Assembly (NCBI GenBank): GCA_016839785.1
Contig: JAEOTQ010000237.1
Span: 1-28,949, forward strand
Direction: 5' to 3'
Length of the DNA: 28,949 nt
DNA from: Candidatus Hodarchaeota archaeon
Lineage (GTDB): Archaea; Asgardarchaeota; Heimdallarchaeia; Hodarchaeales; Hodarchaeaceae
Part shown: positions 843 to 27,169 of the stretch, piece by piece
Layout: each line of letters opens with the position of its first letter
Numbering within the stretch: the stretch's first letter is position 1
The notes under the pieces: generated by a model
Seen by the model: only the letters and a program-made list of their open reading frames with translations
Databases searched by the model: none
Told to the model about the DNA's origin: nothing
Translations under genes and position numbers: made by a program

Positions 843-848
843 CGCTCA

Positions 849-1148: not shown

Positions 1149-1203
1149 TCTACGAACGCAGCAGAATGAATATTCCCGAAGTATATGAAGGTGAGTTAAA
1201 ATC

Positions 1204-3902: not shown

Positions 3903-3966
3903 TCCATAATTCAACAAAAATCATTAGGACAAAAAGGGAAGAATATGGATTAACAGGAGACATTTT

Positions 3967-5220: not shown

Positions 5221-5359
5221 AACGAAGTGAAGAACGAATTTAATTTTCCGTAGAAGTAAAATTTAACTAATCATGGACAATATGGATATTCATGAGGATT
5301 TAGCTCTGAGTTTACAACTAAACACCCTTATTATTAATTTCTATAAGAGGAAGATATGA

Positions 5360-6666: not shown

Positions 6667-6885
6667 CAGTGATTCATCTCAATAACTCTGAAATATTTAC
6701 TAGGTATTCTTTTAAAAATTTAATTATGCTTAGATATTGAATATATTGGAGGCGATCCCATAGGTTTTAGTAAGTAAAAGGTTATCAGTAATTATATAAC
6801 ACCAACGAAGTCGAAAAGAAATTACGAAACATTCGCACCATTTCGCCTCAAGTTGTCCAAAATATCCAAGATTTGTGAAAAAACT

Positions 6886-11385: not shown

Positions 11386-14300
11386 TTGAATATCATGTCG
11401 TCGGAAACAACAGAAGATTCTCTTGTCACAAAAAATGATCTTCATGAATTAGGTGTTGTGGCAACAGAATTACGATCAATTGACCCTACAGTGCAGGTAA
11501 TTTCTTCTTTAAATGAATCGCAAAAATTAATTACACAGATTCAAAAAATAGAAAAGGATTTAACGACTGCAGGCTTCTTTAAGAAAAGAGGTCTAAGCAA
11601 ATCTCTTTCTCAGAAGAAAAACCAGTATAACAAAACTACAGAGAAGCTTTTGAATACAGTTCTTGCTGGTTATAGACGAATTTACTTTGATTTAGCTAAA
11701 AATATTAAGGAAATAGCAAAATTCGTGCCCCAAGAGACAGGTAACATTAAGAATATCCAAATTCCAAGTTTAGAAACAACACTTATTCTAAAATTTAGCA
11801 ATGCAGTGTTAAAGATTTATAATAAGGTAGCAGAAGTACTAAAAGGGAAAAATATTTCTACTTTACTATTTAATCGTGAAATTATTGAATTATATGGAAA
11901 GTTTGTAAATTTTGACGAGGAAAAAATACGTATATCAAGCCAGACATCCAAAGCAAGTATACACGTTATGATAATTTCGGATCTATTGGGCCTTTATAAC
12001 AATCTAGAAGCAGAAAATGCATATTTAAAACAGAGAAGAAAGGGAACAGAGGGGAAAATCCAAGCTGAAATTGTTCGTATGGCCTCTACGTTACATCAAC
12101 ATCTTGGTACTATATCTTCGATCGGAATAAAACTTTCAAGCAATATTGAAACTCTTCAAATACATATACAAGAAATTCAAGGTGAGGCGGATACAAGTAC
12201 ATCTGTAGAAAAGCTTATCGAATTGGAGAAAAGGCTTAGCAGTCTAAGAAATGAGTTTATTAATTCGTTAAGAACGTATGAAATTTCATTAAAGACAGAA
12301 ACTGAAGATCAAATCGGGAGGATTATTCAGCTTGTTGGAGATGACGAAATCGACTCTTTTATAGTTTCAGCACCAAGTATTGATGTTTCTGCCTCTGAAA
12401 TTCCTGTAATCATACAAGATATCGAAAAAATACGATCATGGCATGCAAAATTGATCATAGCCCTGAAGAAACTTGTTAGCACGGCTGAACTAATAAATGC
12501 CGGGAAAACACTACAAGTGATGAAATTTCCTGTTCCAGATGATTTCTTCGACGATGTTAAAAGCATTGAGAAAGAAACTGAGAAAACAAGTGAGCTTCAG
12601 CTGTGGGTGGAGTTAGTGAAACGCTACTATGATTTCCGATTCGCACTTGCTGCTGAATGTCAAAATTATTTCTTCCAAATGCTTGAAAACCCACACATTC
12701 AAGAAGCCATTAGCTTAACTGACGGTCCTCCAATTCCTACTGTGAAAGATTTTGAATCACTTTCACCAGGACAATTAGTCACAAAAGCTCGCGAAATTAA
12801 GGATTGGGAAGCACGCCTGGTTGCATATTTCTCGAAACCAGCCCAGCAAAATTTACGACAGAATCTCATAAGTCTTTACGATACTCGTGAAAGTCTAAAA
12901 GACCTATTAGATGATGATTTGGTCGAAGAAATAGAGAATCTTAGAGAATATAAAAGCGAGGATGAAAAAGAAGTTCGTGATCTCGTTAAAGAAATAGATT
13001 ATTTGAATCAGCTATCAGCGAAAATACGACGTGTAATTTGGGTTGCAATTGATAGTGAAATTCATCCTATCGCTAATCAAATTACCACTCTGGAAACTAT
13101 TCCTCCGAAACTTAAAGCACATGTTCCTAACCTAGAATTAGAAGATTTAAAATCGATTAGAGAAGAAATAGAAATCTCCACTCAAGATAAAGTCAAGAAT
13201 TTACTTGATGAATTTGAGAAGATTACTATCTGGAAATATAAGATTTCAACCCGGATTCGCGAGAATATCAAAGGTATTTCATTTCCTTTAATTCCAATCG
13301 AAACACGATTTGATCTAAGAGAAAAACGCACTGAGATTGTGAAGCTAATTGATAGCCATGCTGAGGCTGGAAACATTGAAGCGATCGTACGTGAATACCT
13401 TTCATTTCTAGAAACAATTGAAGATATGAAAACTGAGATTCTAGTGGAGTTAAAGAAGCAAATTGATGGATTAGAAGCTGTTGATAAAAGATTATTCCGA
13501 TTGATGAAATCTGGAACTAGCAGTGTGAGTTATAGCTCAGAAAGTGAACTTGAGAATTTAGATTATTCTGAAGCATTGACGGAATATTGGCAATTGCTGA
13601 CATTTGTAGACAGAAAAATCTCTACTCTTGCTGAGTTGATGAATCGTGAAATATCATCACATATACAAGATTATTCCAAACTTCCTCCTCAATATTCTGC
13701 CTTTTTTGAGGAACCTCTTGCTCTTATGAATAAAAAACTAGCGGAATTTCAGACTCATAAGGATATCGTACGATTAGTGGATAGTTACGAAAGTTACAGC
13801 CTTGAAAGTATGCAATTAGCTAAGGATTCACTCATAAAATTACATCAGAACCTGTATAATTGGCTAAGAGTCAGTCTTCCTCGAATTCATGAAATTTCTC
13901 CTCTTAGTGATAGTGTTTTTGCCGCGGAGCAGAAGATTTACAACTTTCAACCTGAAGAAGTCTCGCATGAGAGATTAGCCCACGATTTAAGGCAATTGAT
14001 TTACTTCTATGATACTGAAATTGTTGCAGTTTTACTTTCCCATGGAGTATCAAAATCACGAGAAGTGCTTAAAGATGTAAATGACCTCAAGGAAGTAGGT
14101 ATAAACATCATTGAGTATGTTGGCTCTTATATAGAATCTTTCTCGGAGGTAATAGTAAAACATCAGGAAGATGTTCATCTAAGAGAGATTACTGAGGTGT
14201 TTGTGGAAATAGATAAATTGCAAAATGATAATAATGCCTGCAATGCAATTCGTACAACTGGAGAGCGCTATATAGCAGAAATCCAAGATACAATTGAATA

Positions 14301-14904
14301 TTTATTTGGTTCTTTTCAGATTGATCTTCGTGCCGAGGATCGAATCGATTTTGCATATTTAAGTGATTTCCAACGAATCGCTACCAATAATAATGTTCAT
14401 CATTTGACTCAGGCAATCATCAAACTGAATCAAATAAGAGCTGTCGTAGTTGAATTAATGAAAGTAATTGAAAAGGATCGTAATGCGAACTTACAGACCA
14501 AATTAGGAACTCTAGATTATTATTCAAACATTCAAGAGGTCTTCAAGCAATATTCCGATGAAGCATCAGAAAAGATATATCCTTTATCAAAATTACTTGA
14601 AGAACGCGCAGAGTTAATGAATACACATGATTTGCGACTTATATTGAATCTATTCCCAAAAATCGAAAGCCAACGAGAGGAGTGGGAAAAAGTATCAATT
14701 CAATTAAATAGATGGCATAGCGCATTTAGGATGTTTCGTGCTCGCTACTTACCTTCAGAAAACATTGAAGAGAATAAGAGACAATTTAAGGAGATAACGA
14801 AGAAAATAACAGAAACTTATCCCCGTAATAAAGTTATTGGAGCATATTTATCATTAGTAATGAAATTATTTATTGAAATTAAATCTGGTATAGAACTAGA
14901 ATAA
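11386..14904 (+). CDS. Large all-helical / coiled-coil repeat protein
   Basis: 1172-aa ORF rich in E/K/L/I with heptad character; no Walker A or TM segment seen. ATG 11395 is an alternative start. Confidence 0.85.
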   Translation: MNIMSSETTEDSLVTKNDLHELGVVATELRSIDPTVQVISSLNESQKLITQIQKIEKDLTTAGFFKKRGLSKSLSQKKNQYNKTTEKLLNTVLAGYRRIYFDLAKNIKEIAKFVPQETGNIKNIQIPSLETTLILKFSNAVLKIYNKVAEVLKGKNISTLLFNREIIELYGKFVNFDEEKIRISSQTSKASIHVMIISDLLGLYNNLEAENAYLKQRRKGTEGKIQAEIVRMASTLHQHLGTISSIGIKLSSNIETLQIHIQEIQGEADTSTSVEKLIELEKRLSSLRNEFINSLRTYEISLKTETEDQIGRIIQLVGDDEIDSFIVSAPSIDVSASEIPVIIQDIEKIRSWHAKLIIALKKLVSTAELINAGKTLQVMKFPVPDDFFDDVKSIEKETEKTSELQLWVELVKRYYDFRFALAAECQNYFFQMLENPHIQEAISLTDGPPIPTVKDFESLSPGQLVTKAREIKDWEARLVAYFSKPAQQNLRQNLISLYDTRESLKDLLDDDLVEEIENLREYKSEDEKEVRDLVKEIDYLNQLSAKIRRVIWVAIDSEIHPIANQITTLETIPPKLKAHVPNLELEDLKSIREEIEISTQDKVKNLLDEFEKITIWKYKISTRIRENIKGISFPLIPIETRFDLREKRTEIVKLIDSHAEAGNIEAIVREYLSFLETIEDMKTEILVELKKQIDGLEAVDKRLFRLMKSGTSSVSYSSESELENLDYSEALTEYWQLLTFVDRKISTLAELMNREISSHIQDYSKLPPQYSAFFEEPLALMNKKLAEFQTHKDIVRLVDSYESYSLESMQLAKDSLIKLHQNLYNWLRVSLPRIHEISPLSDSVFAAEQKIYNFQPEEVSHERLAHDLRQLIYFYDTEIVAVLLSHGVSKSREVLKDVNDLKEVGINIIEYVGSYIESFSEVIVKHQEDVHLREITEVFVEIDKLQNDNNACNAIRTTGERYIAEIQDTIEYLFGSFQIDLRAEDRIDFAYLSDFQRIATNNNVHHLTQAIIKLNQIRAVVVELMKVIEKDRNANLQTKLGTLDYYSNIQEVFKQYSDEASEKIYPLSKLLEERAELMNTHDLRLILNLFPKIESQREEWEKVSIQLNRWHSAFRMFRARYLPSENIEENKRQFKEITKKITETYPRNKVIGAYLSLVMKLFIEIKSGIELE

Positions 14905-14918
14905 AAGGAAGATCAGAT

Positions 14919-14966
14919 ATGACAATGGAAGAAACAGAAAGCGAAATATTTGCACTTGATCCTTAG
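14919..14966 (+). pseudogene. 15-codon stub resembling the N-terminus of the tubulin/FtsZ-like gene
   Basis: AAGGAAG then ATG, 14 nt after the 1172-aa gene stop. MTMEETESEIFALDP* versus MAIDDQESSEIFAIG at 24744; similarity stops just before the first GTP-binding Gly. Confidence 0.55.
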
Positions 14967-15481
14967 AATTCTTCTTTATCAGCGTGTTTTGTATTTTTGG
15001 ATACTACTTTCCTGCTTATTCTCGTGTCGTAAATCTTACCTAAGGACATAGATTTCGAGGAAATCATCACTTGCGAGTCTATTAGCTTGCATAATACAGT
15101 CTTCACACATCTCTTCCTTGAAAAGTCAGCAGTGGTAATATTTCATCACGTAAGTTACGAAAAAACCATTATACAATGCATACTCACCGAAAAGTGATTT
15201 GAACACAAAAGCGAGTGTTCTCATAAGTAGGAAAGTGACTGACTTTCACCAATCTATTTTGAAGGATGGAAAAGACCACCCCAAAACACATTAAGAGTTA
15301 CTACAAGTCTAAACAGGATGATTCGGAGTTGAGGAGAAATACTACTTGCTATGGCCTGAAAATCGACGAGAATCTCTTTGACTTGTAACCGAGAACGAAT
15401 AATATTGCATAGATTGAAATGTTGAGTCCTCTCGTCAGTGAGTCTTGCATAAGTGTCAAAACCTAATTTATTCTTTTTCAT
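14960..15481 (-). pseudogene. Probable decayed gene coupled to the M50-like gene
   Basis: The 75-aa ORF 15481-15254 overlaps the stop of 16346-15468. Downstream, protein-like fragments continue in shifting frames (MRTLAFVFKSLFGEYALY / WFFRNLRDEILPLL / FKEEMCEDCIMQANRLASDDFLEIYVLR*). Confidence 0.35.
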
Positions 15482-16346
15482 TGTAGAAGGAGGGAAAAAA
15501 CCGCGTTTTCTTAAACGATGACTGTTTCTTTTGCTCCCTACTATCTGGAATCTTGAGTAACACTGGATATTTCAGCTTAGTACTTCTCTTGAAAAATCTA
15601 ACAGTCACGAGTAAGAATGAAAGATAAAATAACGAATAAACTAAGGCTGCAATCAGGGCAGCTACTAAATCACCTTTTGATCGTAATGTCACCTCAACAA
15701 ATATTGAGAAAAATACAACATAAAGCCAGTTAACACAGAATTTTGGAACTAAACCCTGTCTTAGCATAGTATAGATGATCATCATCTGATCTGAAGAACT
15801 AGGCATCAAAGCGTGAAAAAGAACCAATGAGGCGTAGATATGTATTAGGAAACCCATCATTCCTCCTACTTCTATTAACGGTAGTAAAGCTAAATAAACG
15901 ATGAAAAAAGTTAGAGTGTGTTTCCAAGGAGCCATTGCTACCTTTATCATGTCGTCTAAGGTCGTACAAGTACAATAAACGTTTGAACCTTCAGCTCGCG
16001 TATCAATTTCAAAGCGATTATATACTCCGAATTCAATTTGTCTCTTGTCCCTGTTGGAAGGCTCTTTTATATGCCCTTGTTTTTCTTGCTCTCTATTTAT
16101 TTGTTCTTCGATTTCACGCGCCACCGTCATGTGTGCATGTAAGTGAATTAGTCTAAAAGGCCAGGTCAGAAAATCAGCGAGAGGATTTAGGAAAGAAAAT
16201 ATTAGTAATATGCATTTTACAAAGAAATAACTGAAAACAATGAACATTATGGCTTTGAATGGGTCAGATAAATCGAGCTGGCCGATATACCAACCAATAA
16301 AGGATTCTCCTAACGGTTGTAGAAAGTTTTCAAGTAAGGAGATCAT
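15468..16346 (-). CDS. Multi-pass membrane protein, degenerate M50-like/zincin metalloprotease
   Basis: Several hydrophobic segments; HLHAH where HExxH is expected, 'KVAMAP', and 'MPSSSD' as the third-ligand motif. Confidence 0.6.
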   Translation of the reverse strand: MISLLENFLQPLGESFIGWYIGQLDLSDPFKAIMFIVFSYFFVKCILLIFSFLNPLADFLTWPFRLIHLHAHMTVAREIEEQINREQEKQGHIKEPSNRDKRQIEFGVYNRFEIDTRAEGSNVYCTCTTLDDMIKVAMAPWKHTLTFFIVYLALLPLIEVGGMMGFLIHIYASLVLFHALMPSSSDQMMIIYTMLRQGLVPKFCVNWLYVVFFSIFVEVTLRSKGDLVAALIAALVYSLFYLSFLLVTVRFFKRSTKLKYPVLLKIPDSREQKKQSSFKKTRFFPSFYNEKE

Positions 16347-16375
16347 ATTTCTTCATAATATAATTCGAATTCTCT

Positions 16376-16424
16376 CTTAAATATTTGAAAATTCGGCTCT
16401 TTTACATAATTTCAAATTTATAAA
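16376..16424. promoter_or_regulatory. Divergent promoter pair with TTTYRARTWTWTAAR motif
   Basis: TTTCAAATTTATAAA (+, 16410-16424) and TTTCAAATATTTAAG (-, 16390-16376) at TATA distance from the two starts. Confidence 0.6.
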
Positions 16425-16442
16425 TAAAAATACGAATCAATA

Positions 16443-17720
16443 GTGATGAAAGCAACAAATATAGTAACAAGGGGTATACTAAATGCTCACAAGAATTATC
16501 TCAATGGAAAATTATTTCTTGAAGAAAAAAAACAAGAAAATGCTCTAGAATGTTTTTTAAAATCAAAAAATCTATTTCAAGAGGAATTAAATAGGTTATG
16601 TACTTTCGATACACGCTTGATGTGGGAACAAGAACTAAAATTAGTAAATCAAGAAATTTTTAAATTAGAAAAGGGAACTAAGCTAAATCTGGACAAGTTT
16701 ACCGAAGATACAGACTCTAGTTCGAGATTTGATAGGTGGATATCACGGATAAGAGAAGTACACCCAAGATCAGGAACAATGGATACAAATGTTATTGGTT
16801 TGGAATTGGTTAAAGGAACATTAGATAAAGTAATATCATTACCCCTAGAAAGACCTGATATTTGGATAATAAGTCCTTCTCCTCCAAGAAGTATTCTACT
16901 TTATGGAGCACCAGGATGCGGAAAAACACTAATTGTCAAGGTAACAGCTCAAAAAGCAGGTCTTCCCATATATAACATCACCTTAGGAGAATTACTAAGT
17001 AAATGGTTTGGAGAAAGTGAGAAAAAGATAGAATATTTATTTGAAGTTGCATATAAAGAACCTGATGGGTGCATTCTATTCTTTGATGAAATTGATGCCT
17101 TAGTTGGCCAAATGAGCAATGATTCTGATGCAATTAATCGAGTACGGAAAGCGTTTTTGACAGCCTTAGATGGTTATAAAGTACCAAAACCAAATAAAGT
17201 GATTGTTATTGGTTTGACCAATAGGCCTGATTTATTAGACGGAGCTACAATGAGACGGTTCGATAGAAGGGTTTATGTACCTCCTCCTAACTACGACGCT
17301 ATTCTGAAATTGATTCAAAATATTGTAAATAAAACTGACATGAATTTAGATCTATTCTCAGACTCATGGCAGAAAGTAATACATTCCATGCTTGGATTAA
17401 CTGCTGATGAGATATGTAAAATTATTCATGGTGCTATTTGGGAAACAGCAGACAGTATTATTAACCGAGAGGAAGAATTAGGGGAGAAATTCCTGAAAAA
17501 AATTAAAGATCTTTTGTTAGACATGACGCCTTATTTTTGTACATTTGAAGCACTGGAACCATCAGTATTTTTGTTCTTGGATAAACAATATGGATTTCCA
17601 AAGACGAAGGAAGAGGCTTATTGTTGGGAACCATCATTTAATAGCCGAAAACACCGTTTAATTCAACTACACCCCGAACCGAAGGTAATACACAAAAGGA
17701 AATTGTCAAGACGGATTTAA
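16443..17720 (+). CDS. Vps4/CdvC/katanin-clade single AAA+ ATPase with N-terminal MIT/TPR-like helices
   Basis: LLYGAPGCGKT, pore loop SKWFGESEK, FFDEID, TNRP..LD, RRFDRRVYVPPP; N-terminal helical hairpin 'AHKNYLNGKLFLEEKKQENALECF'. ATG 16446 is a likely leaderless start. Confidence 0.85.
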   Translation: MMKATNIVTRGILNAHKNYLNGKLFLEEKKQENALECFLKSKNLFQEELNRLCTFDTRLMWEQELKLVNQEIFKLEKGTKLNLDKFTEDTDSSSRFDRWISRIREVHPRSGTMDTNVIGLELVKGTLDKVISLPLERPDIWIISPSPPRSILLYGAPGCGKTLIVKVTAQKAGLPIYNITLGELLSKWFGESEKKIEYLFEVAYKEPDGCILFFDEIDALVGQMSNDSDAINRVRKAFLTALDGYKVPKPNKVIVIGLTNRPDLLDGATMRRFDRRVYVPPPNYDAILKLIQNIVNKTDMNLDLFSDSWQKVIHSMLGLTADEICKIIHGAIWETADSIINREEELGEKFLKKIKDLLLDMTPYFCTFEALEPSVFLFLDKQYGFPKTKEEAYCWEPSFNSRKHRLIQLHPEPKVIHKRKLSRRI

Positions 17721-17758
17721 AATTCCTGTATTACACTCCTAATTTGATGCGGATGATA

Positions 17759-18460
17759 TTATTTTATATTTAACTTATGTAACAGGTTTTTCTTTAGACT
17801 AGGAGATTTTGTATAAGAAAAGGTGCTTTCAGAAGTTTCAGATTGTTTTTTATTTCGACACTGCTTAGGTATTTCAGGGGAAAGAGTAGGATATTTGTGA
17901 AAAGTATTAGTTAATCCACATTCTTCACTTACCTCTGCAATACTAAGCAGGCGCATTTTGAATCCAGGTATCAGTTCATGCAATACCCCTTGGAAATTTT
18001 CTAGATGTTTACAGGTCTGTTTTAAATAATAGGATTGCTGTTCTTCTCCAAGCTTGGTCCATGGTTGAGCCATCAACAACTCGTAAATCACAAGGTAAAC
18101 TGAACCTTGCTGACTTTCAATATGAATTATGGAGAATTGATCTTGGAATCGTAATCTATCTAAATAATCCTCCGTTTCTACTGTTGAGAAGAATAGGATA
18201 CCTGTGACCGCATATAAAGACTGATTGCTATCTATAAGTAACGTATTTGGTATTGCATCAGCACTCATAAGACTAAGTTCAGCAATTGGTTCTCCTCTAA
18301 TAATCTCGTTTCGATTCAAAATTATTAGATAAAACTCTGCTCCAATGTAACCCAAAATACCTAATAACATTCTCATTAGTTTAAATTGAAACAAAAGCAT
18401 CCCTAGTTCATAAAAAGAAATAAAAACAAATAGCTTCAGGAGCATATCTTTTGATATCAT
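17759..18460 (-). CDS. Membrane-anchored protein (two N-terminal TM helices plus soluble domain)
   Basis: Hydrophobic residues ~7-49; starts 3 nt after the upstream gene's stop. Confidence 0.7.
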   Translation of the reverse strand: MISKDMLLKLFVFISFYELGMLLFQFKLMRMLLGILGYIGAEFYLIILNRNEIIRGEPIAELSLMSADAIPNTLLIDSNQSLYAVTGILFFSTVETEDYLDRLRFQDQFSIIHIESQQGSVYLVIYELLMAQPWTKLGEEQQSYYLKQTCKHLENFQGVLHELIPGFKMRLLSIAEVSEECGLTNTFHKYPTLSPEIPKQCRNKKQSETSESTFSYTKSPSLKKNLLHKLNIK

Positions 18461-18463
18461 ACT

Positions 18464-19510
18464 TCATCTATCTCCTAATTTTTTTATTTGTTTTCCCTCA
18501 TTGGTTTCCTGCTCCTTGTAGATTACATAAAGGGGTACTCCGAAGAGAACTCCAGTGAAGAAAATAGCCATTATCTCCTCAGGGATGGGGTGGTCAGGAA
18601 TATCTATTCTAGACCAAAAATTTGGTATATAATTAGTTTGAAAGTCGACTGTGTGAACTGAAATTTTAATCGTGTATTCACCGTTGTCACTTGTTTCACT
18701 GGGGAAAATTTTTATTCCTATTTCTGTGAAATTCTTATCTAGGATTAGTGTGAATCGTATGAGTGGATTTAACTGTGGTATGGTACTCAAAGTGGTACCT
18801 ATCAAAGTCAATGTTTCTATCTCAATATTGGTATTCAGAAGCAATGTTGAATACAACTTAGCATTAATGGGTAGACGCGTTAGAAATATCGAATTCAGAA
18901 CGAATCGTCGTTTTTGAAAAAATGATAAGTCTTTAAGTCGGATTTTGAATGTATCAGGCATAATTAATATATCAGATTCTGCAATTTCCAATATTTCCCT
19001 AATTATTATTTCATTAAAATCGAATTGTGCATTTATTCCGATGATACTCGGAAAATACTCCAGTGTGACATCTATTCGAAGATGCATCGAAGGGACAAAT
19101 GAGGATAGACCCTCTAATGGAAGAATTAGTACATTTTCTAGATTAAAATCATAATAGACATCGTAAATATGCTCTGTGTTACAAAATACACGCTCCCAAC
19201 TATATTCATCAATCTGCACGCAGAGGGTGATCTTTTTCAATTCAGAACCTGCATTTACTACAGTAAATAGTAAAAAGATATCACCACCGTAGAATTCGTA
19301 TTGGAAGGTCAAGGGTTGAATCCTAATACTAGTAATTTGTTGAGTAACATGGACTTGTTGAGATATACCTAGATCTCTATCCATGAACGGAGATTGTGAC
19401 ATCGTGGGAATAGCCGTTACAGTTTTAACTGAGGTAAATGTAAATAATCGAAGATTTATAAAGAGAAAAATAAGTAAAAGGAAAATACTATATGGTTGAT
19501 GTCGACTCAA
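18464..19510 (-). CDS. Predicted surface protein: signal peptide, beta-rich ectodomain, C-terminal TM anchor
   Basis: N-terminal hydrophobic stretch SIFLLLIFLFINL, alternating beta-strand patterns, C-terminal IMAIFFTGVLFGVPLYVIY plus charged tail; ATGA overlap with the hydrolase gene. Confidence 0.75.
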   Translation of the reverse strand: MSRHQPYSIFLLLIFLFINLRLFTFTSVKTVTAIPTMSQSPFMDRDLGISQQVHVTQQITSIRIQPLTFQYEFYGGDIFLLFTVVNAGSELKKITLCVQIDEYSWERVFCNTEHIYDVYYDFNLENVLILPLEGLSSFVPSMHLRIDVTLEYFPSIIGINAQFDFNEIIIREILEIAESDILIMPDTFKIRLKDLSFFQKRRFVLNSIFLTRLPINAKLYSTLLLNTNIEIETLTLIGTTLSTIPQLNPLIRFTLILDKNFTEIGIKIFPSETSDNGEYTIKISVHTVDFQTNYIPNFWSRIDIPDHPIPEEIMAIFFTGVLFGVPLYVIYKEQETNEGKQIKKLGDR

Positions 19511-20151
19511 TTCACTCCTCTCTCCTGAAATACAGATTTTAATAAAATATCAAAATCGTAACCATGGATTTCGTCAATATGTAATGGATCTCTTAAATTA
19601 TCAATAAGAATCAGTAAACAAGCAAGAACTACAACCCCTTTACATAATAGGACAATTCTATGGTTGATTCCACGTTCTTCTCTGCTTAATAAACTACTAT
19701 GAAGACGTAATTTTAATCTTGGTCTCGTATGCTGATTAAATAGATAGTTTTTGCGTCTATCCTGAGAAAATAGAGTGGATGTAAAGCCAATGGGAATTCC
19801 CTCCTCACTGAATATATCAAGAATCAAATGGGATCCAATTGAAAGAAATATCCCTCTTACAAGTAAACAGAATATCTGATTTTCGGTATTGACCCCTAAA
19901 AAGACAAGGAATAGAAATAATAAAATTATAGGGTTATGCGTAAGCGGATGTCTACATCTCTCTGCACAAGTTTTCATTTTTTGATCCGTACAGAAATACT
20001 TGTCCAGAATATTAGGAAAAACGCTAATAAAACTCAGGCCTACAGCAAAGGGGAGAAATAGAATCTGAATCATAGGTTTTTGCATATTGAGGAAAAGAAT
20101 ATCCAGCAAAATGAGTGAGAAAGCAAACCAGAAATGAGTACGATTCTCTAT
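19507..20151 (-). CDS. YdjM-like membrane metal-dependent hydrolase
   Basis: The frame stays open 14 codons upstream of TTG 20109 to ATA-GAG-AAT-CGT-ACT-CAT (xENRTH, the family's N-terminal TH motif), preceded by GAGGT. FPNILD, RHPLTHN, SHLILD..GIP. Confidence 0.75.
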   Translation of the reverse strand: MENRTHFWFAFSLILLDILFLNMQKPMIQILFLPFAVGLSFISVFPNILDKYFCTDQKMKTCAERCRHPLTHNPIILLFLFLVFLGVNTENQIFCLLVRGIFLSIGSHLILDIFSEEGIPIGFTSTLFSQDRRKNYLFNQHTRPRLKLRLHSSLLSREERGINHRIVLLCKGVVVLACLLILIDNLRDPLHIDEIHGYDFDILLKSVFQERGVN

Positions 20152-20161
20152 CGCTACAACC

Positions 20162-20251
20162 TCAATATTGATTGTGTTTGGTCTTTATAAATTCGAAATC
20201 ACAATTCGTGGATTTTGAATATTTAAGGTGGAATTAGGATCAATATTGATC
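20162..20251. promoter_or_regulatory. Symmetric divergent promoter pair with TCAATATTGA palindromes
   Basis: TTTCGAATTTATAAA (-, 20198-20184) and TTTTGAATATTTAAG (+, 20213-20227), each followed after exactly 12 nt by TCAATATTGA (20171-20162; 20240-20249). Confidence 0.65.
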
Positions 20252-20262
20252 AATGGTTTTGA

Positions 20263-21954
20263 GTGAGCGAATTGGGAACTGTAACAACACCTCCAACGAG
20301 AGTAAAGATTTCGTTATACCAAGATGACGTTTTAGTAGTTGAAACCAAGAGGTCTACGAACTTACTAGTAACAGATATCACCTTAGTATCAGTGATAGGA
20401 ATAATAGTTTATAACACAAGCAGTTTTTCATTAATCAGAAAGGTTATTGAAAATAACACCAGAGTCTCAATGTGGAGAGCTAATAGAATCGTACAAAAAA
20501 TTACCAAACATAACAAAATCCCTGTAGAAACATTATACAGTCATAATTTGATGATCATCAAAGAATCAATGTGTGGTTACGGATCGATACCAAAATTTTT
20601 GATGGAAAGAGCATATGATAGCTTAATAGAAAAAAGAACGGCGGTATTGAGCACTCTTTTGAATGGGTTTCAACTTAAAATCCTCTCAAAGAACTTATTG
20701 AAGAGAGCTTTTATTCATAAAAAAACAATCAAAGAATTATGGCAAGAAATTCCATACGATTTGGAGTTCGTCCGATCAGTCGCCGAATTGGAACGGGTAC
20801 CAAAACGAATAGTACCTTCACTGCCATTCAGCAATGGGAACATCAGAATTCCGATTGGTAGGTTATTTCTGAACTCGCAACGAGAAGTTGGATTTAATAT
20901 ACTTCCAAAACTAGTCATAATGGGAGGATCTGACCATAAACTTGCGATAGGAACATTACAGAGCTTCATTAAAACTGTGACGGTGAGAGGAGAAAAAGTT
21001 ATTATCATTGACCTAGGAAATGAGCTGGGTGGATTAAACGAAGCAACGAGTAGTGAGTCCAATCCCAATCTGCAGCTGAAGGAATTTCATATAGGAAGGA
21101 ATTTTCTTCTCAATCTGTTTAAGGTAGATATTCCTACTTCGCAAGAAAATCCGATGAGTAGGATGGTTTTTCAGGCAAATTCCATTGCCAATATTTTAGG
21201 TTATGCAAGTGATTCCACCGAAGTAATGTCCCATCTATCCTTATTGAAAACGAAGGTACTAGATTCGATCCAGAAACATTCGTCAAAGGATTATACACTA
21301 GCTCAATTCGTTGAATCAGAGGTGTTCGCAAAGCCAACATCTGAGTTTGAATTTTCAATTATAGAGCAACTAAGCGCGGAATTGAGTATTTTTGCAGGAT
21401 TTGACCATTTGAATCACATAGAGTTCGATCAAGAATATGATTTCTATCTCGATCCAAGTCCAGGAATAACGCTTTTCCATTTTCCTAACCAAATTTCTCC
21501 AATTAAACGTGTAACATTCGCTTTCCTCCTACAAAAAATCGGAATGAGGTGTGACCCAAAAACAGTAGTTGTCATTACAAATGCATCCCAGATGTTAAAA
21601 AATACTGAAGAAAATTTGCGAAATAGAGGTAATACATTATACGAGGAAACAATAGGGAGATATTGTGAACAGATAACCCGAACAGGATGTTTAACCCTAG
21701 TTACAAGTTCTTTTGCAAAACTTCATCCTGATATCAAAGAAATGAAAAGCAGTGTGATCTCCTTAAAGATGGTAGATCCTCAGGATAGGAAATGGTTAAT
21801 CGAGAGGTTTGCCCTAAATCGATATTTAGATAATCCAAATGATTTCTTGGAGAGTTTGGACGGAGAAGGATTGCTTTTTAGGCATGATATACCGCATACG
21901 GTTGATCATTATATTCCTTATACCCTGGAACCAATATTAGAGCAGATTTATTAA
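20263..21954 (+). CDS. HerA/VirB4/FtsK-superfamily (DUF87-like) protein with inactivated Walker motifs
   Basis: Motif order preserved: IPIG, LVIMGGSDHKL (Walker A site, no GKT), VIIIDLGNE, LNLF, VVVITNASQM (Walker B site, no DE), LTLVTSS (usually TQ), ISLKMVDPQD, L.GEGLL. Confidence 0.7.
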   Translation: MSELGTVTTPPTRVKISLYQDDVLVVETKRSTNLLVTDITLVSVIGIIVYNTSSFSLIRKVIENNTRVSMWRANRIVQKITKHNKIPVETLYSHNLMIIKESMCGYGSIPKFLMERAYDSLIEKRTAVLSTLLNGFQLKILSKNLLKRAFIHKKTIKELWQEIPYDLEFVRSVAELERVPKRIVPSLPFSNGNIRIPIGRLFLNSQREVGFNILPKLVIMGGSDHKLAIGTLQSFIKTVTVRGEKVIIIDLGNELGGLNEATSSESNPNLQLKEFHIGRNFLLNLFKVDIPTSQENPMSRMVFQANSIANILGYASDSTEVMSHLSLLKTKVLDSIQKHSSKDYTLAQFVESEVFAKPTSEFEFSIIEQLSAELSIFAGFDHLNHIEFDQEYDFYLDPSPGITLFHFPNQISPIKRVTFAFLLQKIGMRCDPKTVVVITNASQMLKNTEENLRNRGNTLYEETIGRYCEQITRTGCLTLVTSSFAKLHPDIKEMKSSVISLKMVDPQDRKWLIERFALNRYLDNPNDFLESLDGEGLLFRHDIPHTVDHYIPYTLEPILEQIY

Positions 21955-21989
21955 CATAGGAAGGACTCGCTCTCCTCTAATGAAGAAAA

Positions 21990-22026
21990 TTTTGAGTTTA
22001 TAAGTTTCAATTAGTATTGTTATTGA
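21990..22026 (+). promoter_or_regulatory. Promoter with the same 15-mer motif
   Basis: TTTTGAGTTTATAAG (21990-22004), then TTGTTATTGA after 12 nt; ATG at 22033. Confidence 0.55.
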
Positions 22027-22067
22027 ATATTAATGGAAGATCATGATTCTGAGGGGGAAGAACTTCG

Positions 22068-24389
22068 TTGAATGATGACGAACAAACCCAAACAAAACAA
22101 TTGGAAGATCAGAAAAGGAAGCAAAAAGAAGAGGAAAATGAGGACTCCAGAGAGTCAGAAAAATTAGACATATTGATGGAAGAGTACATGGACCAGATAC
22201 TAATAGAAGAAGAAAGTAAACCTTTACAAATCAGTGAAGAAGAGGATAAAAATGAAGAGACATCAATTGAAGTGGAGAGAAGGGAAAAGGAAGAAGAAAT
22301 AAGCGTAGAACTGATGAGGAGCACAGAAAAGGAGAAAACAGAAGTAAATTTTCAAGAGGAGGTCGAAGAAGTAGAAAGAGAGAAAGAACAAGAGGTGTTA
22401 CGGGAGGAGTACGAAGATCAAATACTGATGAGCAAGGGAAACACCGAAGAAAGTGTTAATGTTTTACAGGAAGAAAAAATTAGTAATCCAGAAGAAGAAG
22501 AGCAGTTAAAGCGTGAAACAGAAAATTTATTGAATGAAAAATATCAAACTCAGTATATTATCAGTGAAGAAGATATTGTTGAAAATCTAGGTGTAAAAAA
22601 GGAAAGCAGGGAGCATGAGATTGAGAAAACAATGGCGCAAAGGGAGAATTTAGAGGAAATCAAATCCGACGTTAAAAATAGTCAAGATATAAATTCGTTA
22701 ATTAAAGAATTAAACACACAACTTGAAACACGAGATCATTTGGACTCTAGTACCTATAGATTACTAACCAACCTTCATGATGAGGGTACCTATCCAAATA
22801 TTGCTTTTGTGTACAAAAGAGATGGGAGGAAAACAGTAGAACAACTCAATAGACACTTATATGATAAGCTCATAGATAATCAGAGATTAGGGAATTTTAG
22901 ATTAGAATGGCAACGATTCTGGTTTGAAGGCCTAGGTCAGATTGAACAGACAGAACATGGAAGAAGGATATTTTTACTGGATTTATCCAAAGAAGAAGAA
23001 CTCCCAACAAGCATGCGTAGAATTTTCTTGGCAAAGAATACGCATACTTGGAATACACTGGTACCAACGAAACGAGAATTACATAGCATGAATATAAGAG
23101 AATTTATCGATATTTTATTTGGAAAACGAGTGTCATCAGCGGATTTCGAAAATGTAAAGGACTTTACTTACCAGAAAAAAATGAATAATGTGTGGAGAGA
23201 GTTCCAGAGGGTATATAAGAAAGATTTCGATCTAAAAACCACGAAAAGACCTGCATTGTTTGCTTTGAAGCCCGAGTACACAAGAGAAAGCATCGAACAT
23301 ACTTTAATAGGAACATTCTGGAAGTATTATCATGGGCTAGACCGAATTGGGAGGCGAAATATGAAACAATGGGGATACAATAACTTACTGCAATTAATGA
23401 AAAATAAAGCCACAGGCGTTTATCCAACTATCGTCGATCCCAATTACATTGGTCAAAAGTTTGTTGTAAGAGTAGTAAACAAGGGGAGGGCATTTAAACG
23501 CTTGTTAGGTGAACTAGATGAGATAAAAGAAACTGACCATGGAAAAGTAATCGATAGAATATATCAGTCTTGGATCATTGACAACGAAATTCTTCACTCC
23601 AAGGTAATTGATGGATTGATGTGGGGCGTAAAAGAGGCACGATCAACTCACTATATTAAATTTGATAGCATTGCTCATTTAATGAATGAAAAAAACACTT
23701 ATGGAATCAATGCCGTACTAGAAGCATTTTTTGAAAATAAGAATGTCCTAGACTCCTTAAATACAGACTTAAACCAAAAATTTCGAGCTAGATCAGTGTG
23801 TACTTCCTCTGGGTATGCTAGAATTAATTCAGGTGCCTTAAGTACTGCGTATCCTGACCTGAAAATTCACACTGAAAAACCAATAAACGTGCAAATCAAG
23901 GATTTAGGTAAGTGTTTTGACCAAAATAAAAAAGAATTAGTTATATATGATCAATTTAAATCGTTTTTCGGGAAGTCAGATAATTTTGAAAACATTACTC
24001 TCCATCTCATTAATGGTGTGGATTTAACAAGTGTGTATGACGTGAAATCTCATCCGAATCTGACACAAAACAATGTAGGAATTATTACTATTGGTATTTG
24101 GGATGATACTGAAGGGATTAATAAGTTTGGAGAACTCTTTAGCGCACTCAGAATAGCTCAGGATTCTGGATATACTGACAAAGAGGCATTTGATACAGTA
24201 GTAAAATACATTGATGGAACAGGCCAGTCCTTTGACAAAACCGATGAGAATACGCTAAGAAAACTTCAAGGATTGTGGTCTAATGATCCTGCAAACCTAA
24301 TACTGAATGTCATTGAAGTATTCGGGGACAATTTTCAAGAGACCTCTGTGAACAGCATTGTTTCAGATACAACAAAAAAAATTATTTGA
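22068..24389 (+). CDS. Large protein with Glu-rich low-complexity N-terminus and globular C-terminal region (possible PD-(D/E)xK nuclease)
   Basis: First ~200 aa are E/K-rich; candidate motifs PDLKIHTEKPINVQIK and VDLTSVYDVK. Start uncertain (out-of-frame ATG at 22033). Confidence 0.75.
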   Translation: MNDDEQTQTKQLEDQKRKQKEEENEDSRESEKLDILMEEYMDQILIEEESKPLQISEEEDKNEETSIEVERREKEEEISVELMRSTEKEKTEVNFQEEVEEVEREKEQEVLREEYEDQILMSKGNTEESVNVLQEEKISNPEEEEQLKRETENLLNEKYQTQYIISEEDIVENLGVKKESREHEIEKTMAQRENLEEIKSDVKNSQDINSLIKELNTQLETRDHLDSSTYRLLTNLHDEGTYPNIAFVYKRDGRKTVEQLNRHLYDKLIDNQRLGNFRLEWQRFWFEGLGQIEQTEHGRRIFLLDLSKEEELPTSMRRIFLAKNTHTWNTLVPTKRELHSMNIREFIDILFGKRVSSADFENVKDFTYQKKMNNVWREFQRVYKKDFDLKTTKRPALFALKPEYTRESIEHTLIGTFWKYYHGLDRIGRRNMKQWGYNNLLQLMKNKATGVYPTIVDPNYIGQKFVVRVVNKGRAFKRLLGELDEIKETDHGKVIDRIYQSWIIDNEILHSKVIDGLMWGVKEARSTHYIKFDSIAHLMNEKNTYGINAVLEAFFENKNVLDSLNTDLNQKFRARSVCTSSGYARINSGALSTAYPDLKIHTEKPINVQIKDLGKCFDQNKKELVIYDQFKSFFGKSDNFENITLHLINGVDLTSVYDVKSHPNLTQNNVGIITIGIWDDTEGINKFGELFSALRIAQDSGYTDKEAFDTVVKYIDGTGQSFDKTDENTLRKLQGLWSNDPANLILNVIEVFGDNFQETSVNSIVSDTTKKII

Positions 24390-24743
24390 CACCTTTTCCA
24401 CTACTCTTATCTTGATAAAAATGTTTCGAAGGAAAGGTAATATTCCATTCTTTCCCCTAAGAGATTTATTAAGGTATTCGGTAAATTGGTAAAAAATCGT
24501 TTCCTCTGATCTTATTCTCATGTTATTAAATCTTATAATGACTGAATGCTTAAAGTAATTGAGAAAAATATTTCAAAACATTTATCTAATTCGGAAATAG
24601 TGTTGAGATTAATGAATTTCTTTGCTTAAAAAAAGAGTTAAAAACCCTCGGCATGCTAATATGCAGGGTTTATTATCATTAATCCTTAAATCGTTGATAA
24701 AGATTAAATTAGAAGTCAGATCAAATCAGTAGGTATAAAGAAA

Positions 24744-26117
24744 ATGGCAATAGACGATCAAGAATCTTCAGAAATCTTTGCGATCGGAATCGGCGAATGT
24801 GGAAGCAATTTAGTAGGGAGCTATTTAGCGAAATCCAAAAAAGGAGAACTTCCAGCACGCATACGTGAATTCTTAGTGATGAATACGGATAGGGGAGATT
24901 TATTAAAAGCACGAAAAAAATACTCAATCTCATCAAAGCGGACCTTACTCTACTCTGATGCAGAAATTGGAGTGGGTGGAAAATTCTCTGCAGGGTATGA
25001 ATCAGTAATTAATTCTGAGGACATTATCTTAAACCAGTTACAGGCTTTGGGATATGAAGGAATCAGTGGTTTTTGCATTTTTACAAGTTTTGGAGGAGGA
25101 ACTGGTTGTGGAGGGACTCCAGCATTAATTCGCTTACTACGAAAGAGGTTTGCAGAACAAGAAAAACGAAAGATATTCATCTACGTATTTGGAGTTCTCC
25201 CATTTGTAAACCAATCATCTGAAGCTGTTAATAGCGTCTGGGCACTGTCAAAACTTCTTCGATTACAATTAGAGGAAGGAAACATGGGTCCTGATCTTAT
25301 TCTTCTTCTTTCAAATAATACTATGCTGAGTCGCGTATTAAGTATGCAAAGAGGAGAAGCAGCTGATTTAATTACACGAGAAAAAGGACTGGATCTCACA
25401 GCTTTAGATAGCAATGTAACTAGACCGAATGTATTAGGTCAAACTGAAGCACCACTTCCTGTTCAAATGGAAGAAGCTTTCGTTGAACTAATTAATCCAT
25501 TAGCACTTGAGTCTATTGCAGAAATGCTTTCACCTGGGGTTCCAGAACTAGGTAAAGAGGTTTTACCTACAACTGATATTGGAGATTTTGCGCTTAAATT
25601 AGATAGTGTAGTAGTTCCAGCTATGTTCGATGATTTATCTATCTTTCCTGAAGTGGGAGATGTAGGAAATCAATTAGGAGCAGCAGTTGAGTATACAGCT
25701 GCACATTGCAGCCTTACTAATATGGGGAACAATCCTGCTGCTTCATCCGTATTTTCCGTATTAAGTGGACCTAAAGAGATTGCTCGAGTTGAATTCGACC
25801 CCTTATTGAAAAAAGCGCTCAGTCCTTTTCTAGCTAAGGGGGCAAGCATTTCTCCCACTTATTGTGCCTATGATGATGAAAAGGCACGAGCTTCTCTATT
25901 GTTATTATTCGGTTTACCACGAGTACCAGAATTATATGATATATTAGAAGAAGCCAAGTCGTTGATTCAATTACATAGTGGGGATTCAGAATTGAAACAG
26001 CACTGGTTTAAGAGATCAAAAGGGACAACAAAACAGGAATTAGAAAATGCTGTCAGTGATCTGGAAAAATTGTTTGGCTATTATATTAAACCAGATCAAG
26101 ACCAGGTAAATAAGTGA
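24744..26117 (+). CDS. Divergent tubulin/FtsZ-superfamily GTPase (CetZ-like grade)
   Basis: T1 GIGECGSNL, T2 MNTD, T3 GVGGKFSAG, signature SFGGGTGCGGTP (GGGTGCGG core at 25092-25115), GVLP, LSNN, T7-like TTDIGDF, C-domain LLLFGLP. Confidence 0.92.
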   Translation: MAIDDQESSEIFAIGIGECGSNLVGSYLAKSKKGELPARIREFLVMNTDRGDLLKARKKYSISSKRTLLYSDAEIGVGGKFSAGYESVINSEDIILNQLQALGYEGISGFCIFTSFGGGTGCGGTPALIRLLRKRFAEQEKRKIFIYVFGVLPFVNQSSEAVNSVWALSKLLRLQLEEGNMGPDLILLLSNNTMLSRVLSMQRGEAADLITREKGLDLTALDSNVTRPNVLGQTEAPLPVQMEEAFVELINPLALESIAEMLSPGVPELGKEVLPTTDIGDFALKLDSVVVPAMFDDLSIFPEVGDVGNQLGAAVEYTAAHCSLTNMGNNPAASSVFSVLSGPKEIARVEFDPLLKKALSPFLAKGASISPTYCAYDDEKARASLLLLFGLPRVPELYDILEEAKSLIQLHSGDSELKQHWFKRSKGTTKQELENAVSDLEKLFGYYIKPDQDQVNK

Positions 26118-26161: not shown

Positions 26162-27169
26162 ATGAATTTTAGTGAAGATCAAAATCCCTCAAAAGGTCCT
26201 TCTACCGATCAGAGGCCTCTCGATGTTCTAGAAAACAAAATAGATTTTTTAATAAATTTGAATTTAACTAGTTTAAATTTAATTACTGCTCTGAGTTCAT
26301 GTATTAGTGATAGAGATGGTATTCCTGATGGAGTACGCAAGGAATTAAGATCAATCCATTCAGCTTTACCAAATCTATTAACTTTTGACAATGCAAAGCC
26401 CGTTTTTATGGATCTTGTGGAAAAATTAAACGCCAAGCTAGCTGAAATTATTGGAACACCCGATACTACTAATATTATTGAACAAGCTTATGATACTTCC
26501 ATCCCAGTTACATCAAATAAAGAAATAATGAAAGGTTTCAATAGGTATGAAAGTTTGATTGATAAATGGGGAATAATTGAGTCCATTGAAGGACTCATGA
26601 GTTCATATAGCACCTTATCAAATTTAGCTTTTCCTACATATTATCTTCACGGGTGCAAAGAGATTCAAAGATACACATTAACACAAGAAATTTCGAATCC
26701 CAATTCTCATGAAATTATCCAATTTCCATGTCTAAAACTTAAGGATTTGATCTTTAAGCTATTGCGAGAAGCACCTGCAGCTCGTTTATTACAGAATTTG
26801 AAAAAAATGTTTCCCCTGCAAAGTAAGATAGAATTGGATGCTTCAGAAGAATCAAATATTCAAGAAATTGTGAAAAAATACATTTCAAATATCTCTGATT
26901 TCCTTAATGGAAAAAGAACATTACAGGATACCATACGAATAAGTACATCAGTTCTTCAGCAATATAATCTAGGGTCTGGAGATTTAGAATCTCGGATTCC
27001 GAATGTATCTTTTTCTGTTGTGAAAGATATCCAAAAAGAATTTCAACTTGCTAGAGGAAATGATTTTAAACAATTTGTCTATTCAGAAACTATTGTTCTA
27101 ATTCATCGCTTAAACGATGCTATTCTACGAAATGATAGGTTTATAGTATTACTGCGACGACTTAAGTGA
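26162..27169 (+). CDS. Helical hypothetical protein downstream of the tubulin-like gene
   Basis: 335-aa ORF, GAGGT upstream, 44 nt after the previous stop; no motif recognised. Confidence 0.8.
   Translation: MNFSEDQNPSKGPSTDQRPLDVLENKIDFLINLNLTSLNLITALSSCISDRDGIPDGVRKELRSIHSALPNLLTFDNAKPVFMDLVEKLNAKLAEIIGTPDTTNIIEQAYDTSIPVTSNKEIMKGFNRYESLIDKWGIIESIEGLMSSYSTLSNLAFPTYYLHGCKEIQRYTLTQEISNPNSHEIIQFPCLKLKDLIFKLLREAPAARLLQNLKKMFPLQSKIELDASEESNIQEIVKKYISNISDFLNGKRTLQDTIRISTSVLQQYNLGSGDLESRIPNVSFSVVKDIQKEFQLARGNDFKQFVYSETIVLIHRLNDAILRNDRFIVLLRRLK

Follow-up and report, generated by a model that had tools for sequence, protein, structure and literature searches.

A six-gene module of Hodarchaeales combining a Vps4-related ATPase with a VirB4/HerA-fold protein devoid of Walker motifs

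A conserved set of six genes, here termed g12–g17 (15468–21954), was characterized in a 28,949-nucleotide (nt) stretch of DNA from Candidatus Hodarchaeota archaeon (contig JAEOTQ010000237.1 of assembly GCA_016839785.1, positions 1 to 28,949), hereafter the window. The set is a functional unit and, as far as searched, its sequence matches are restricted to a single Asgard order, Hodarchaeales. It encodes a AAA+ ATPase related to Vps4 (g13), a protein assigned by its predicted fold to the FtsK/HerA/VirB4 superfamily and devoid of the catalytic motifs (g17), and four membrane or surface proteins (g12, g14, g15 and g16). The adjacent gene g18 encodes a protein with an acidic leader, which is also found on proteins with unrelated bodies beside other copies of the module. 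We tentatively read the module, at a confidence that stays somewhat below even, as an undescribed envelope machine that would handle leader-bearing proteins. A preliminary description of this DNA had proposed a module of seven genes; the conserved unit comprises six, because g18 is also present at a syntenic locus of another genome (G002) from which the module is missing.

In the source genome (G000; 4.04 Mb in 248 contigs), the seven open frames g12–g18 (15468–24389) form five transcription units, namely g12, g13, g16–g15–g14, g17 and g18. The features are as follows, with lengths in amino acids (aa):

14957–15467, no strand: left junction, the start of a 7.1-kb stretch absent from the syntenic G002 locus.
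15468–16346, minus strand: g12, 292-aa polytopic membrane protein, orphan.
16376–16424, no strand: divergent g12/g13 promoters, with two copies of TTTYRAWTWTWTAAR.
16443–17720, plus strand: g13, 425-aa AAA+ ATPase, recognized by PF00004 and motifs.
17759–18460, minus strand: g14, 233 aa, with two predicted N-terminal transmembrane helices followed by an alpha/beta domain.
18464–19510, minus strand: g15, 348-aa single-pass surface protein.
19507–20109 as listed, or to 20151 with an upstream in-frame segment, minus strand: g16, assigned by sequence to the YdjM family (PF04307).
20162–20250, no strand: divergent g16/g17 promoters, with TTTYRAWTWTWTAAR copies and palindromes.
20263–21954, plus strand: g17, 563 aa, predicted VirB4/HerA fold, no Walker A or B.
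22068–24389, plus strand: g18, 773 aa, acidic leader, client candidate outside the six-gene unit.

The earlier count of seven intact genes in five transcription units was borne out. All seven frames are open, and the ratio of nonsynonymous to synonymous substitution rates (dN/dS) against the G004 orthologues was 0.10–0.37, which indicates purifying selection throughout and hence that g12–g18 are real genes. Within the three-gene unit, g16 and g15 overlap by 4 nt and g15 and g14 are separated by 3 nt. A Kyte-Doolittle scan located hydrophobic segments in g12, g14, g15 and g16, in agreement with the four membrane or surface proteins first proposed. The left junction holds just one open reading frame (ORF), of 75 aa (15254–15481, minus strand).

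Conservation was assessed by searching 41 genomes with g17. Orthologue-grade matches (35–73% identity) were obtained in six of the 40 other genomes (G002, G003, G004, G013, G018 and G019), all from the same genus as the source. A second class of matches, at 20–28% identity to a longer protein (~860–930 aa), was found in nearly every genome of the genus. Either kind of match was present in 20 of the 21 genomes of the genus and in both genomes of the sister family; the 17 genomes sampled from three further families of the taxonomic class had neither. Full six-gene sets lie adjacent in G003 (with one rearrangement), G004, G013 and G019, at protein identities from 84% down to 30%, and partial modules at contig ends were seen in G002, G018 and further G013 contigs. 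Strong g14 matches accompany the g17 orthologue in all six genomes. The homologues thus recur together in other genomes, as expected of the module initially proposed, and their source records carry the names Hodarchaeales or Heimdallarchaeota. On either side of the module, gene content varies from genome to genome (UbiD, a GHMP kinase, phosphoglycerate kinase, a major facilitator superfamily transporter and orphan genes), and no integrase, transposase or relaxase was found among 18 module-flanking ORFs scanned in G019, G003, G002 and G013.

A locus without the module was identified in G002, whose contig C96 keeps the window order g08–g11 and g19–g22 at 78–96% protein identity, with a g18 homologue directly after g11 and without g12–g17. 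Nucleotide similarity to this contig (L035) ends at 14956, with which the left edge first drawn for the module (14954) coincides, and resumes at 22671 inside g18. Therefore, g12–g17 plus ~0.5 kb on their left represent a 7.1-kb difference at a single site; in G004, no counterpart was found for window positions 14957–15455. An 18-nt direct repeat at 14900 and 22096 (83% identity) was considered as an attachment site and rejected, because similarity to the empty G002 site continues past the repeat to 14956. A repeat search of the window returned no convincing flanking repeat around the module, and no tRNA gene or Rfam family was found in the window, across which the GC content is even. G002 has a module of another type elsewhere, split over contigs C80 and C91, whose g17 is 42% identical to that of the window and 60% to that of G019. 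Its g14 orthologue (C80:1327–2019) contains one in-frame TGA, possibly a sequencing error or the sign of a broken gene.

The housekeeping protein Nre is 90% identical to that of the source in G014, 89% in G004 and 86% in G019. Yet G014 is without a g17 orthologue, and in G019 the identity to the window g17 falls to 39%; therefore, the module diverges, or is exchanged, far faster than the surrounding genome. Three DNA contig sets from one study provided fragmentary cover at a depth of 3–6. Loose contig ends occur at 16575, 19549, 20084 and 22015, and related strains are their probable source. At 22015, a contig present in two of the sets (X1, X2) matches rightwards into g18 and continues leftwards as unrelated sequence, and may represent a strain with another gene before g18.

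Distant paralogues of g12, g14, g15, g16 and g17, and none of g13, were found in most genomes of the genus. On contig C19 of the source genome (7626–26439; L016, L024), paralogues of g14, g17, g16, g15 and g12 lie within 18 kb as a core set, which shares a gene run with two immunoglobulin (Ig)-domain surface proteins (564 and 1053 aa). Its neighbours are RadA, an XPD-type helicase abutting the g17 paralogue and a PD-(D/E)XK-like protein, and the contig also encodes a small ATPase, similar to KaiC/RadA, whose Walker A motif is intact. The core g16 paralogue matches PF04307 at 5.4e-6. The g16 and g15 paralogues are also adjacent in G010, G012 and G001, and in G010 the g17 paralogue adjoins a g12 paralogue that is 23–25% identical to g12. 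By sequence similarity, the module proves to be a compact and diverged version of the core gene set, with one Vps4-derived AAA+ ATPase added. A link to DNA suggested by RadA and the XPD-type helicase beside the g17 paralogue was rejected, because this arrangement is not kept in G010.

The added ATPase, g13, carries a AAA domain (PF00004, E 4.1e-35) whose Walker A, Walker B and sensor 1 motifs, both arginine fingers and pore loop SKWFGESEK are invariant in all five orthologues. The source genome has a true Vps4 (MIT, AAA and Vps4_C domains), encoded between two Snf7 genes and a gene of ESCRT-II (endosomal sorting complex required for transport II). Alignment of g13 with this Vps4 in hhalign gave a probability of 99.9 and 29% identity over 297 columns, and the helical N-terminal region of g13 aligned in part with the MIT domain. 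In a tree of 16 AAA domains from the source genome, g13 was sister to Vps4 (support 94/97) on a stem branch of 1.82; this clade assignment is provisional, because the tree holds no AAA proteins of other organisms. No Pfam match to Vps4_C or MIT was obtained for g13, and its 143 bits on the CdvC model fall short of the cut-off (650). A C-terminal extension of 90 aa is specific to g13. Searches found it in five of the six genomes with a g17 orthologue (G002, G003, G004, G019 and, twice, G013) and in no genome of the 34 lacking one. Motifs, hhalign and tree together support the Vps4-like ATPase of the preliminary description. As the sole component of the module with an intact ATPase site and all catalytic motifs, g13 is also a plausible source of its energy, as had been suggested.

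For g17, an AlphaFold2 model computed from a 32-row alignment (predicted local distance difference test score, pLDDT, 86) comprises an N-terminal alpha/beta domain (residues 1–182) and a RecA-like domain of VirB4/HerA/TrwB type (residues 183–563). In VIA-align, residues 183–563 superposed best on VirB4 (4ag5; Z 28.2, root-mean-square deviation 3.0, 331 residues aligned), followed by DndH-C (Z 27.2), HerA (8xav; Z 25.5) and TrwB (Z 21.5), each over ~330 residues, and residues 1–182 aligned to nothing among the matches listed. The top Foldseek matches were HerA proteins of anti-phage complexes (8xav, E 1.9e-13; 4d2i, E 1.0e-12; probability 1.00), and viral HerA-like proteins also matched. Judged from this model, g17 belongs by fold to the FtsK/HerA/VirB4 superfamily. 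A Walker A GK(S/T) and a Walker B hhhhDE were found in none of the 31 alignment rows that cover the sites, core paralogues included, and the corresponding columns read GGSDHK and VITNAS in the window protein. As read from these columns, g17 lacks the active-ATPase motifs of the superfamily (GxxGxGK(S/T) and hhhhDE), and the extent of the loss points to an old, stable state rather than recent decay. Fold and motif columns thus support the dead HerA/VirB4 reported earlier, and the scaffold role then assigned to it is reasonable as a scaffold or receptor function, given that the catalytic motifs are lost family-wide.

The g17 family is small, with just 44 representatives in 1.84 billion proteins. 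In its tree, an accessory clade of 15 rows and a core clade of 8 rows stand apart, each well supported, alongside further long-branched lineages. A family profile searched against the PDB returned only weak winged-helix matches (E 0.12–0.76; AspA/PadR), all within a C-terminal extension that is present in some g17 orthologues and in all core paralogues and absent from the window g17.

The probable partner of g17 is g14, in which two N-terminal transmembrane helices precede a predicted cytoplasmic alpha/beta domain. The two proteins are fused in frame, g14 ahead of g17, in G003 (an ORF of 988–996 aa), in G018 and in a database protein (P0003, 961 aa). Prediction of the g14–g17 complex gave ipSAE values of 0.75, 0.76 and 0.75 in three runs, compared with 0.00 for the best of three controls; the runs had at least 79% of contacts in common, with a partner pLDDT of at least 67. 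The ipSAE mark is reached by 58 of 80 solved complexes and by 2 of 110 mismatched pairs, a calibration that holds only roughly here because the alignments were user-made. The predicted interface joins g17 residues 5–19, 66–76 and 173–184 to g14 residues 55–69 and 90–120, and in the model a strand of g14 pairs with a strand of the g17 N-terminal domain. PDB sequence searches returned no solved complex resembling this pair, and a PDB profile search with g14 gave nothing at E < 1. Taken together, the fusions and the complex model support, without proving, the view that g14 would anchor g17 at the membrane.

The remaining three membrane proteins were analysed by profile, and PDB profile searches with g12, g15 and g16 gave nothing at E < 1. 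The polytopic g16 contains four or five hydrophobic segments, and all six of its orthologues match PF04307 at E ≤ 0.01 (best 2.1e-12), which assigns g16 by sequence to the YdjM/DUF457 family; taken singly, the window protein stays below the gathering score of 29, with 19.9 bits. The orthologues keep an N-terminal Thr-His, a CxxxxxxxCxxxCxH cluster, a GSHLxLD motif and one Glu. Because these His, Asp, Glu and Cys residues are conserved, g16 is not visibly degenerate. In the window, ATA (20151) stands where G004 has the start codon ATG; the listed ORF therefore begins 14 codons later, at TTG 20109, without the first conserved His. Upstream, the first in-frame stop is at 20187–20185, and no ATG, GTG or TTG precedes the Thr-His segment, so that either ATA or ATT would initiate g16 or the window copy would be devoid of the first conserved His. 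A Cap1 preprint retrieved as DUF457 literature was irrelevant and set aside as a word match to DUF4579 only.

In the protein encoded by g15, an N-terminal signal or anchor segment is followed by a domain of ~280 aa on the outside. The C-terminal part consists of a helix, directly preceded by the invariant motif HPIP (consensus PDHPIP), and a charged tail. With a dN/dS of 0.37, g15 is the fastest-evolving gene of the set; it adjoins g16 in every locus, and the paralogous pair is adjacent too. For g12, at least five hydrophobic segments and a conserved proline-containing C-terminal tail were found, and no match to a Pfam, NCBIfam or PDB family. A profile search gathered a g12 family of 31 proteins, all unnamed or 'hypothetical' and all from Hodarchaeales or Heimdallarchaeia records. 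The best ESM Atlas values were 0.79 for g12 and 0.76 for g15, below a meaningful level. A role of g12 as a second YdjM-like hydrolase was rejected (hhalign probability against g16, 0.5%). Of the 'degenerate membrane hydrolases' in the preliminary description, what stands is the placement of g16 in a family annotated as hydrolases; g16 is not degenerate, and g12 is unrelated to it.

The acidic leader described for g18 proved to be real and exceptional. Residues 1–230 are 33% Asp+Glu, and among the 1534 source-genome ORFs of at least 300 aa, no other reaches 26% Asp+Glu over its first 230 residues. The leader contains two copies of (Y/F)x(D/E)Qx(I/L/V)(I/L/V/M), at residues 40 and 115. Genome-wide, 27 instances of this short motif were counted over 1.157 million residues, and g18 alone of 3133 frames has two. 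It was found in nine of ten leader proteins, at one to four copies per leader, usually with LLxxAE(E/G) before it and acidic residues after it; the fuller form is LLxxAE(E/G)(Y/F)xDQx(I/V)(I/V)x(E/D)(E/D).

Of the seven loci in which that side of g17 can be seen, five (the window, G004, G003 and two G013 contigs) have a leader ORF directly after the gene. A distance of 4 kb separates g17 from the closest leader ORF in G002, and in G019 none is in view. The bodies of three motif-bearing leader proteins (L014, 1172 aa; L015; L041, 1443 aa) do not match the g18-family profile, which matches the G013 and G002 (C91) proteins in the leader only and the G003 protein not at all. The earlier suggestion that the acidic-leader protein is cargo has thus gained support, in that unrelated bodies beside other modules appear to carry the same leader and motif. 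A HMMER search with the G013 leader returned only the G013 and G002 copies and missed the leader of the window itself. The g18 body was modelled with AlphaFold2 at a mean pLDDT of 61; it gave no Foldseek match at E ≤ 0.001 and no Z of 5 or above in VIA-align against 48,161 chains. Weak Foldseek rows (E 0.05–0.9), several of nucleotidyltransferase fold, were not used.

The promoters suggest shared regulation. A 15-nt word combining a transcription factor B recognition element (BRE) and a TATA box, TTTYRAWTWTWTAAR, occurs 18 times in the 4.04-Mb genome, and four of these copies lie upstream of g12, g13, g16 and g17, at 16376–16390 (minus), 16410–16424 (plus), 20184–20198 (minus) and 20213–20227 (plus). 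The site upstream of g18 is one base off, which agrees with the common promoter motif first noticed for all five units. A further copy stands ahead of the Ig-protein operon of the core set, and the word was found again in orthologous loci. The palindrome ATCAATATTGA follows the TATA box of g13, g16 and g17 (three of the four promoters) by 12–13 nt, at the predicted transcription start; it lies at 20162–20172 and 20239–20250, and its variant ATCAATAGTGA at 16436–16446 overlaps the g13 start. With up to one mismatch, ATCAATATTGA has eight matches in the window against 2.3 expected, a number reached by none of 100 shuffles. The perfect palindrome TCAATATTGA, present at these three sites with one variant carrying G, is a candidate operator.

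Assembled into an envelope machine, the components might work as follows. On the inner membrane face, g17 and g14 would form an inactive, ring-shaped platform or receptor beside the polytopic g12, in a geometry that recalls VirB3–VirB4 of type IV secretion. The outward-facing part would consist of g16 and g15, with g16 possibly processing g15 at the HPIP–helix end. As the only motor, g13 would engage large clients through the acidic N-terminal leader motif and either unfold them or pass them on to the membrane complex, to be exported or displayed on the surface. Fast divergence, a patchy distribution and a leader shared by proteins with variable bodies would fit a machine for cell–cell interaction. 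In its boldest form, this reading amounts to a new class of protein translocation peculiar to Hodarchaeales, in which a dead VirB4/HerA docking platform is combined with a Vps4-duplicate motor that reads the leader (Y/F)xDQx(I/V)(I/V) for export or display; to this we give rather little credence.

Several points weigh against the envelope machine. An export, cell-contact or DNA-transfer apparatus, as proposed in the preliminary description, is an inference, and among the module genes none was recognized as encoding a pilin, a relaxase, a coupling protein or a nuclease. We know of no precedent for an inactive VirB4/HerA as the core of a translocon, and the channel is conjecture because g12, g14, g15 and the g17 N-terminal domain have no recognizable relatives. 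The leader protein of G003 (1088 aa) is devoid of the strict motif, and g18-type proteins also occur away from the module, at the syntenic locus and contig C63 of G002 and on another contig of G019. Such module-free proteins may represent several clients for one machine and would equally fit an independent family. The g11–g18–g19 order of G002 without g12–g17 implies that the adjacency in the window could reflect insertion beside a pre-existing gene. With a poor body model and no fold match, nothing marks g18 as an effector. Furthermore, the sampled genomes are related, so the co-occurrence counts overstate independence.

An unlikely alternative is a defence or conflict system comparable to Sir2–HerA, DUF4297–HerA or IetAS, in which the HerA-type platform and the AAA+ ATPase would sense virus or DNA and the membrane parts would kill or arrest the cell. 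The anti-phage HerA proteins at the head of the Foldseek list, and the match of g13 to the IetA models of PADLOC 2.0 (E 2.6e-34), are in its favour, as are the varying context of the module, its patchiness within the genus (including its absence from the close relative G014) and a divergence far above that of a housekeeping protein (39% for g17 against 86% for Nre between G000 and G019). However, the g13 matches are generic AAA matches, TRIP13 among them; apart from these, PADLOC 2.0 run on the seven proteins gave just a weak 2TM Effector match for g18 (E 0.0043) and no match for g12 or g14–g17. In known HerA systems, defence depends on an active HerA together with an enzymatic effector (Sir2 or a nuclease, for example), neither of which the module has. 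Five of the six components have paralogues across most of the genomes in the genus, which would be unusual for defence genes, and the leader proteins would be left unexplained.

Similarly improbable is a role in envelope biogenesis or sorting without export of cargo, in which g16 would mature g15 at the HPIP–helix, g12, g14, g17 and g13 would serve g15 insertion, quality control or extraction, and g18 would be a mere neighbour. Vps4-type ATPases extract or disassemble membrane-bound proteins, which suits such a role for g13. The constant adjacency of g16 and g15, repeated by the paralogues in G000, G010, G012 and G001, the position of the invariant HPIP just before the g15 helix, the conserved residues of metal-ligand type in g16 and the gene run that the G000 core pair shares with two large Ig-domain surface proteins are also consistent with it. 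Set against this, no activity is known to us for any member of the YdjM family, the window g16 has lost its canonical start codon, and the recurrence of genome-unique, motif-bearing leader proteins beside the module would have no explanation.

The remnant of an integrated conjugative element or provirus with a decayed VirB4-like ATPase is very improbable: the 7.1-kb presence/absence between G000 and G002 at one chromosomal site, the patchy distribution, the VirB4/TrwB-type fold typical of conjugation and the viral HerA-like matches of g17 point in that direction, but the seven proteins and 18 flanking ORFs include no integrase, transposase, relaxase, capsid or replication gene, neither tRNA gene, Rfam family nor convincing flanking repeat was found, GC content is uniform, all genes are under purifying selection, the loss of the Walker motifs extends to the whole family, core paralogues included, and no contig in the three DNA sets joins across the module.

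The surroundings of the module were also annotated. Upstream lie typical Asgard genes, including CDC48, and positions 351–7821 contain a run of eukaryote-signature genes. These encode roadblock/LC7 (E 1.3e-4), a protein resembling folliculin/longin (PF11704, E 2.4e-6) and a GTPase of the Arf family that is extended by 130 aa at its C-terminus. The preceding gene g11 (11386–14904, plus strand) encodes a mostly helical orphan of 1172 aa without a Pfam family, whose G002 copy is 88% identical and which has a paralogue at 23% identity on contig C79. Downstream, a 457-aa protein of the tubulin/FtsZ family (24744–26117, plus strand; PF00091, E 1.4e-16) bears a GGGTGCGG signature. After it come two orphan ORFs and one ORF for a coiled-coil protein (26162–27169, 27327–28205 and 28210–28878); the order of this block is kept in G002 at 78–96% identity.

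The source archaeon belongs to the group closest to eukaryotes, and conserved gene sets are the main handle on the cell biology of these archaea. Here, such a set presents a second, specialized use of a Vps4-type ATPase, defines what appears to be a whole family of VirB4/HerA-fold proteins that gave up ATP hydrolysis and points to a short motif, located in the leader, as the mark of a group of large, variable proteins. If the module is an envelope machine and the leader proves to be a targeting signal, the clients of this uncharacterized archaeal machine could be listed by sequence alone.

In a comparison with known systems, the seven proteins of the region matched no known conjugation, type VII or defence system by sequence, as the preliminary description had surmised. 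No description of the gene set was found among the papers listed or in the sections consulted of PMC9905601 and PMC8812541.

The HerA anti-phage complexes (Sir2–HerA/Nezha and DUF4297–HerA) and HerA–NurA resemble the module in the fold of g17, for which they provided the top Foldseek matches and VIA-align Z values of 24–25. They differ in that their HerA is an active ATPase partnered with an enzymatic effector or nuclease, whereas g17 is devoid of the motifs.

In type VII secretion, the AAA+ protein EccA acts with EccC, an FtsK-like ATPase whose degenerate domains bind substrate, and the substrates carry a short signal. The module offers an analogy only, in the combination of a AAA+ ATPase, an FtsK/HerA-class protein and putative substrates with a common short signal. 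Homology goes no further than the superfamily: g13 reached 25.6 bits with the EccA model, for which 467 is required, and no relatives of EccB, EccC, EccD, EccE or MycP were found in the module.

Likeness to Vps4/CdvC is confined to g13, which shares the pore-loop context SKW-hydrophobic-GESEK and the arginine fingers, aligns in part with the MIT helices and has Vps4 as its nearest paralogue in the genome and its sister in the tree. The differences are its position outside the ESCRT locus, the missing Vps4_C match, a C-terminal extension of its own, a long stem and its occurrence with the module only.

Of the described systems, the inner-membrane complex of the type IV secretion system (T4SS) and its archaeal derivatives Ced and Ted come closest to the module, which nevertheless differs from them. 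Its VirB4-like family has neither Walker A nor Walker B; it contains no recognizable pilin, VirB6/CedA relative, coupling protein or relaxase; its candidate motor is a Vps4-lineage AAA+ ATPase; and it adds a YdjM-family protein and acidic-leader proteins. To our knowledge, no T4SS, Ced or Ted system uses a Vps4-lineage AAA+ ATPase. Besides the g14 N-terminus, no small two-helix protein was found among the window ORFs of at least 60 aa. Ced and Ted are built from CedB/TedB (VirB4), CedA/TedA (VirB6) and CedA1/TedC (VirB2) (Beltran et al. 2023, PMC9905601). The module resembles them in that its genes are chromosomal and its components have no detectable sequence similarity to bacterial ones.

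Likeness to the T4SS inner-membrane complex extends over three components. VirB4 is the best structural match of the g17 C-terminal domain, and a polytopic membrane protein is encoded alongside, namely g12, which has no PDB, Pfam or Atlas relative and is a possible counterpart of VirB6/CedA. VirB3–VirB4 fusions occur, and the module mirrors this pair in that the two-helix g14 is predicted to bind the VirB4-like g17 or is fused ahead of it. PDB sequence searches with g14 gave no match; it is the fusions and the predicted complex that suggest g14 as a functional counterpart of VirB3.

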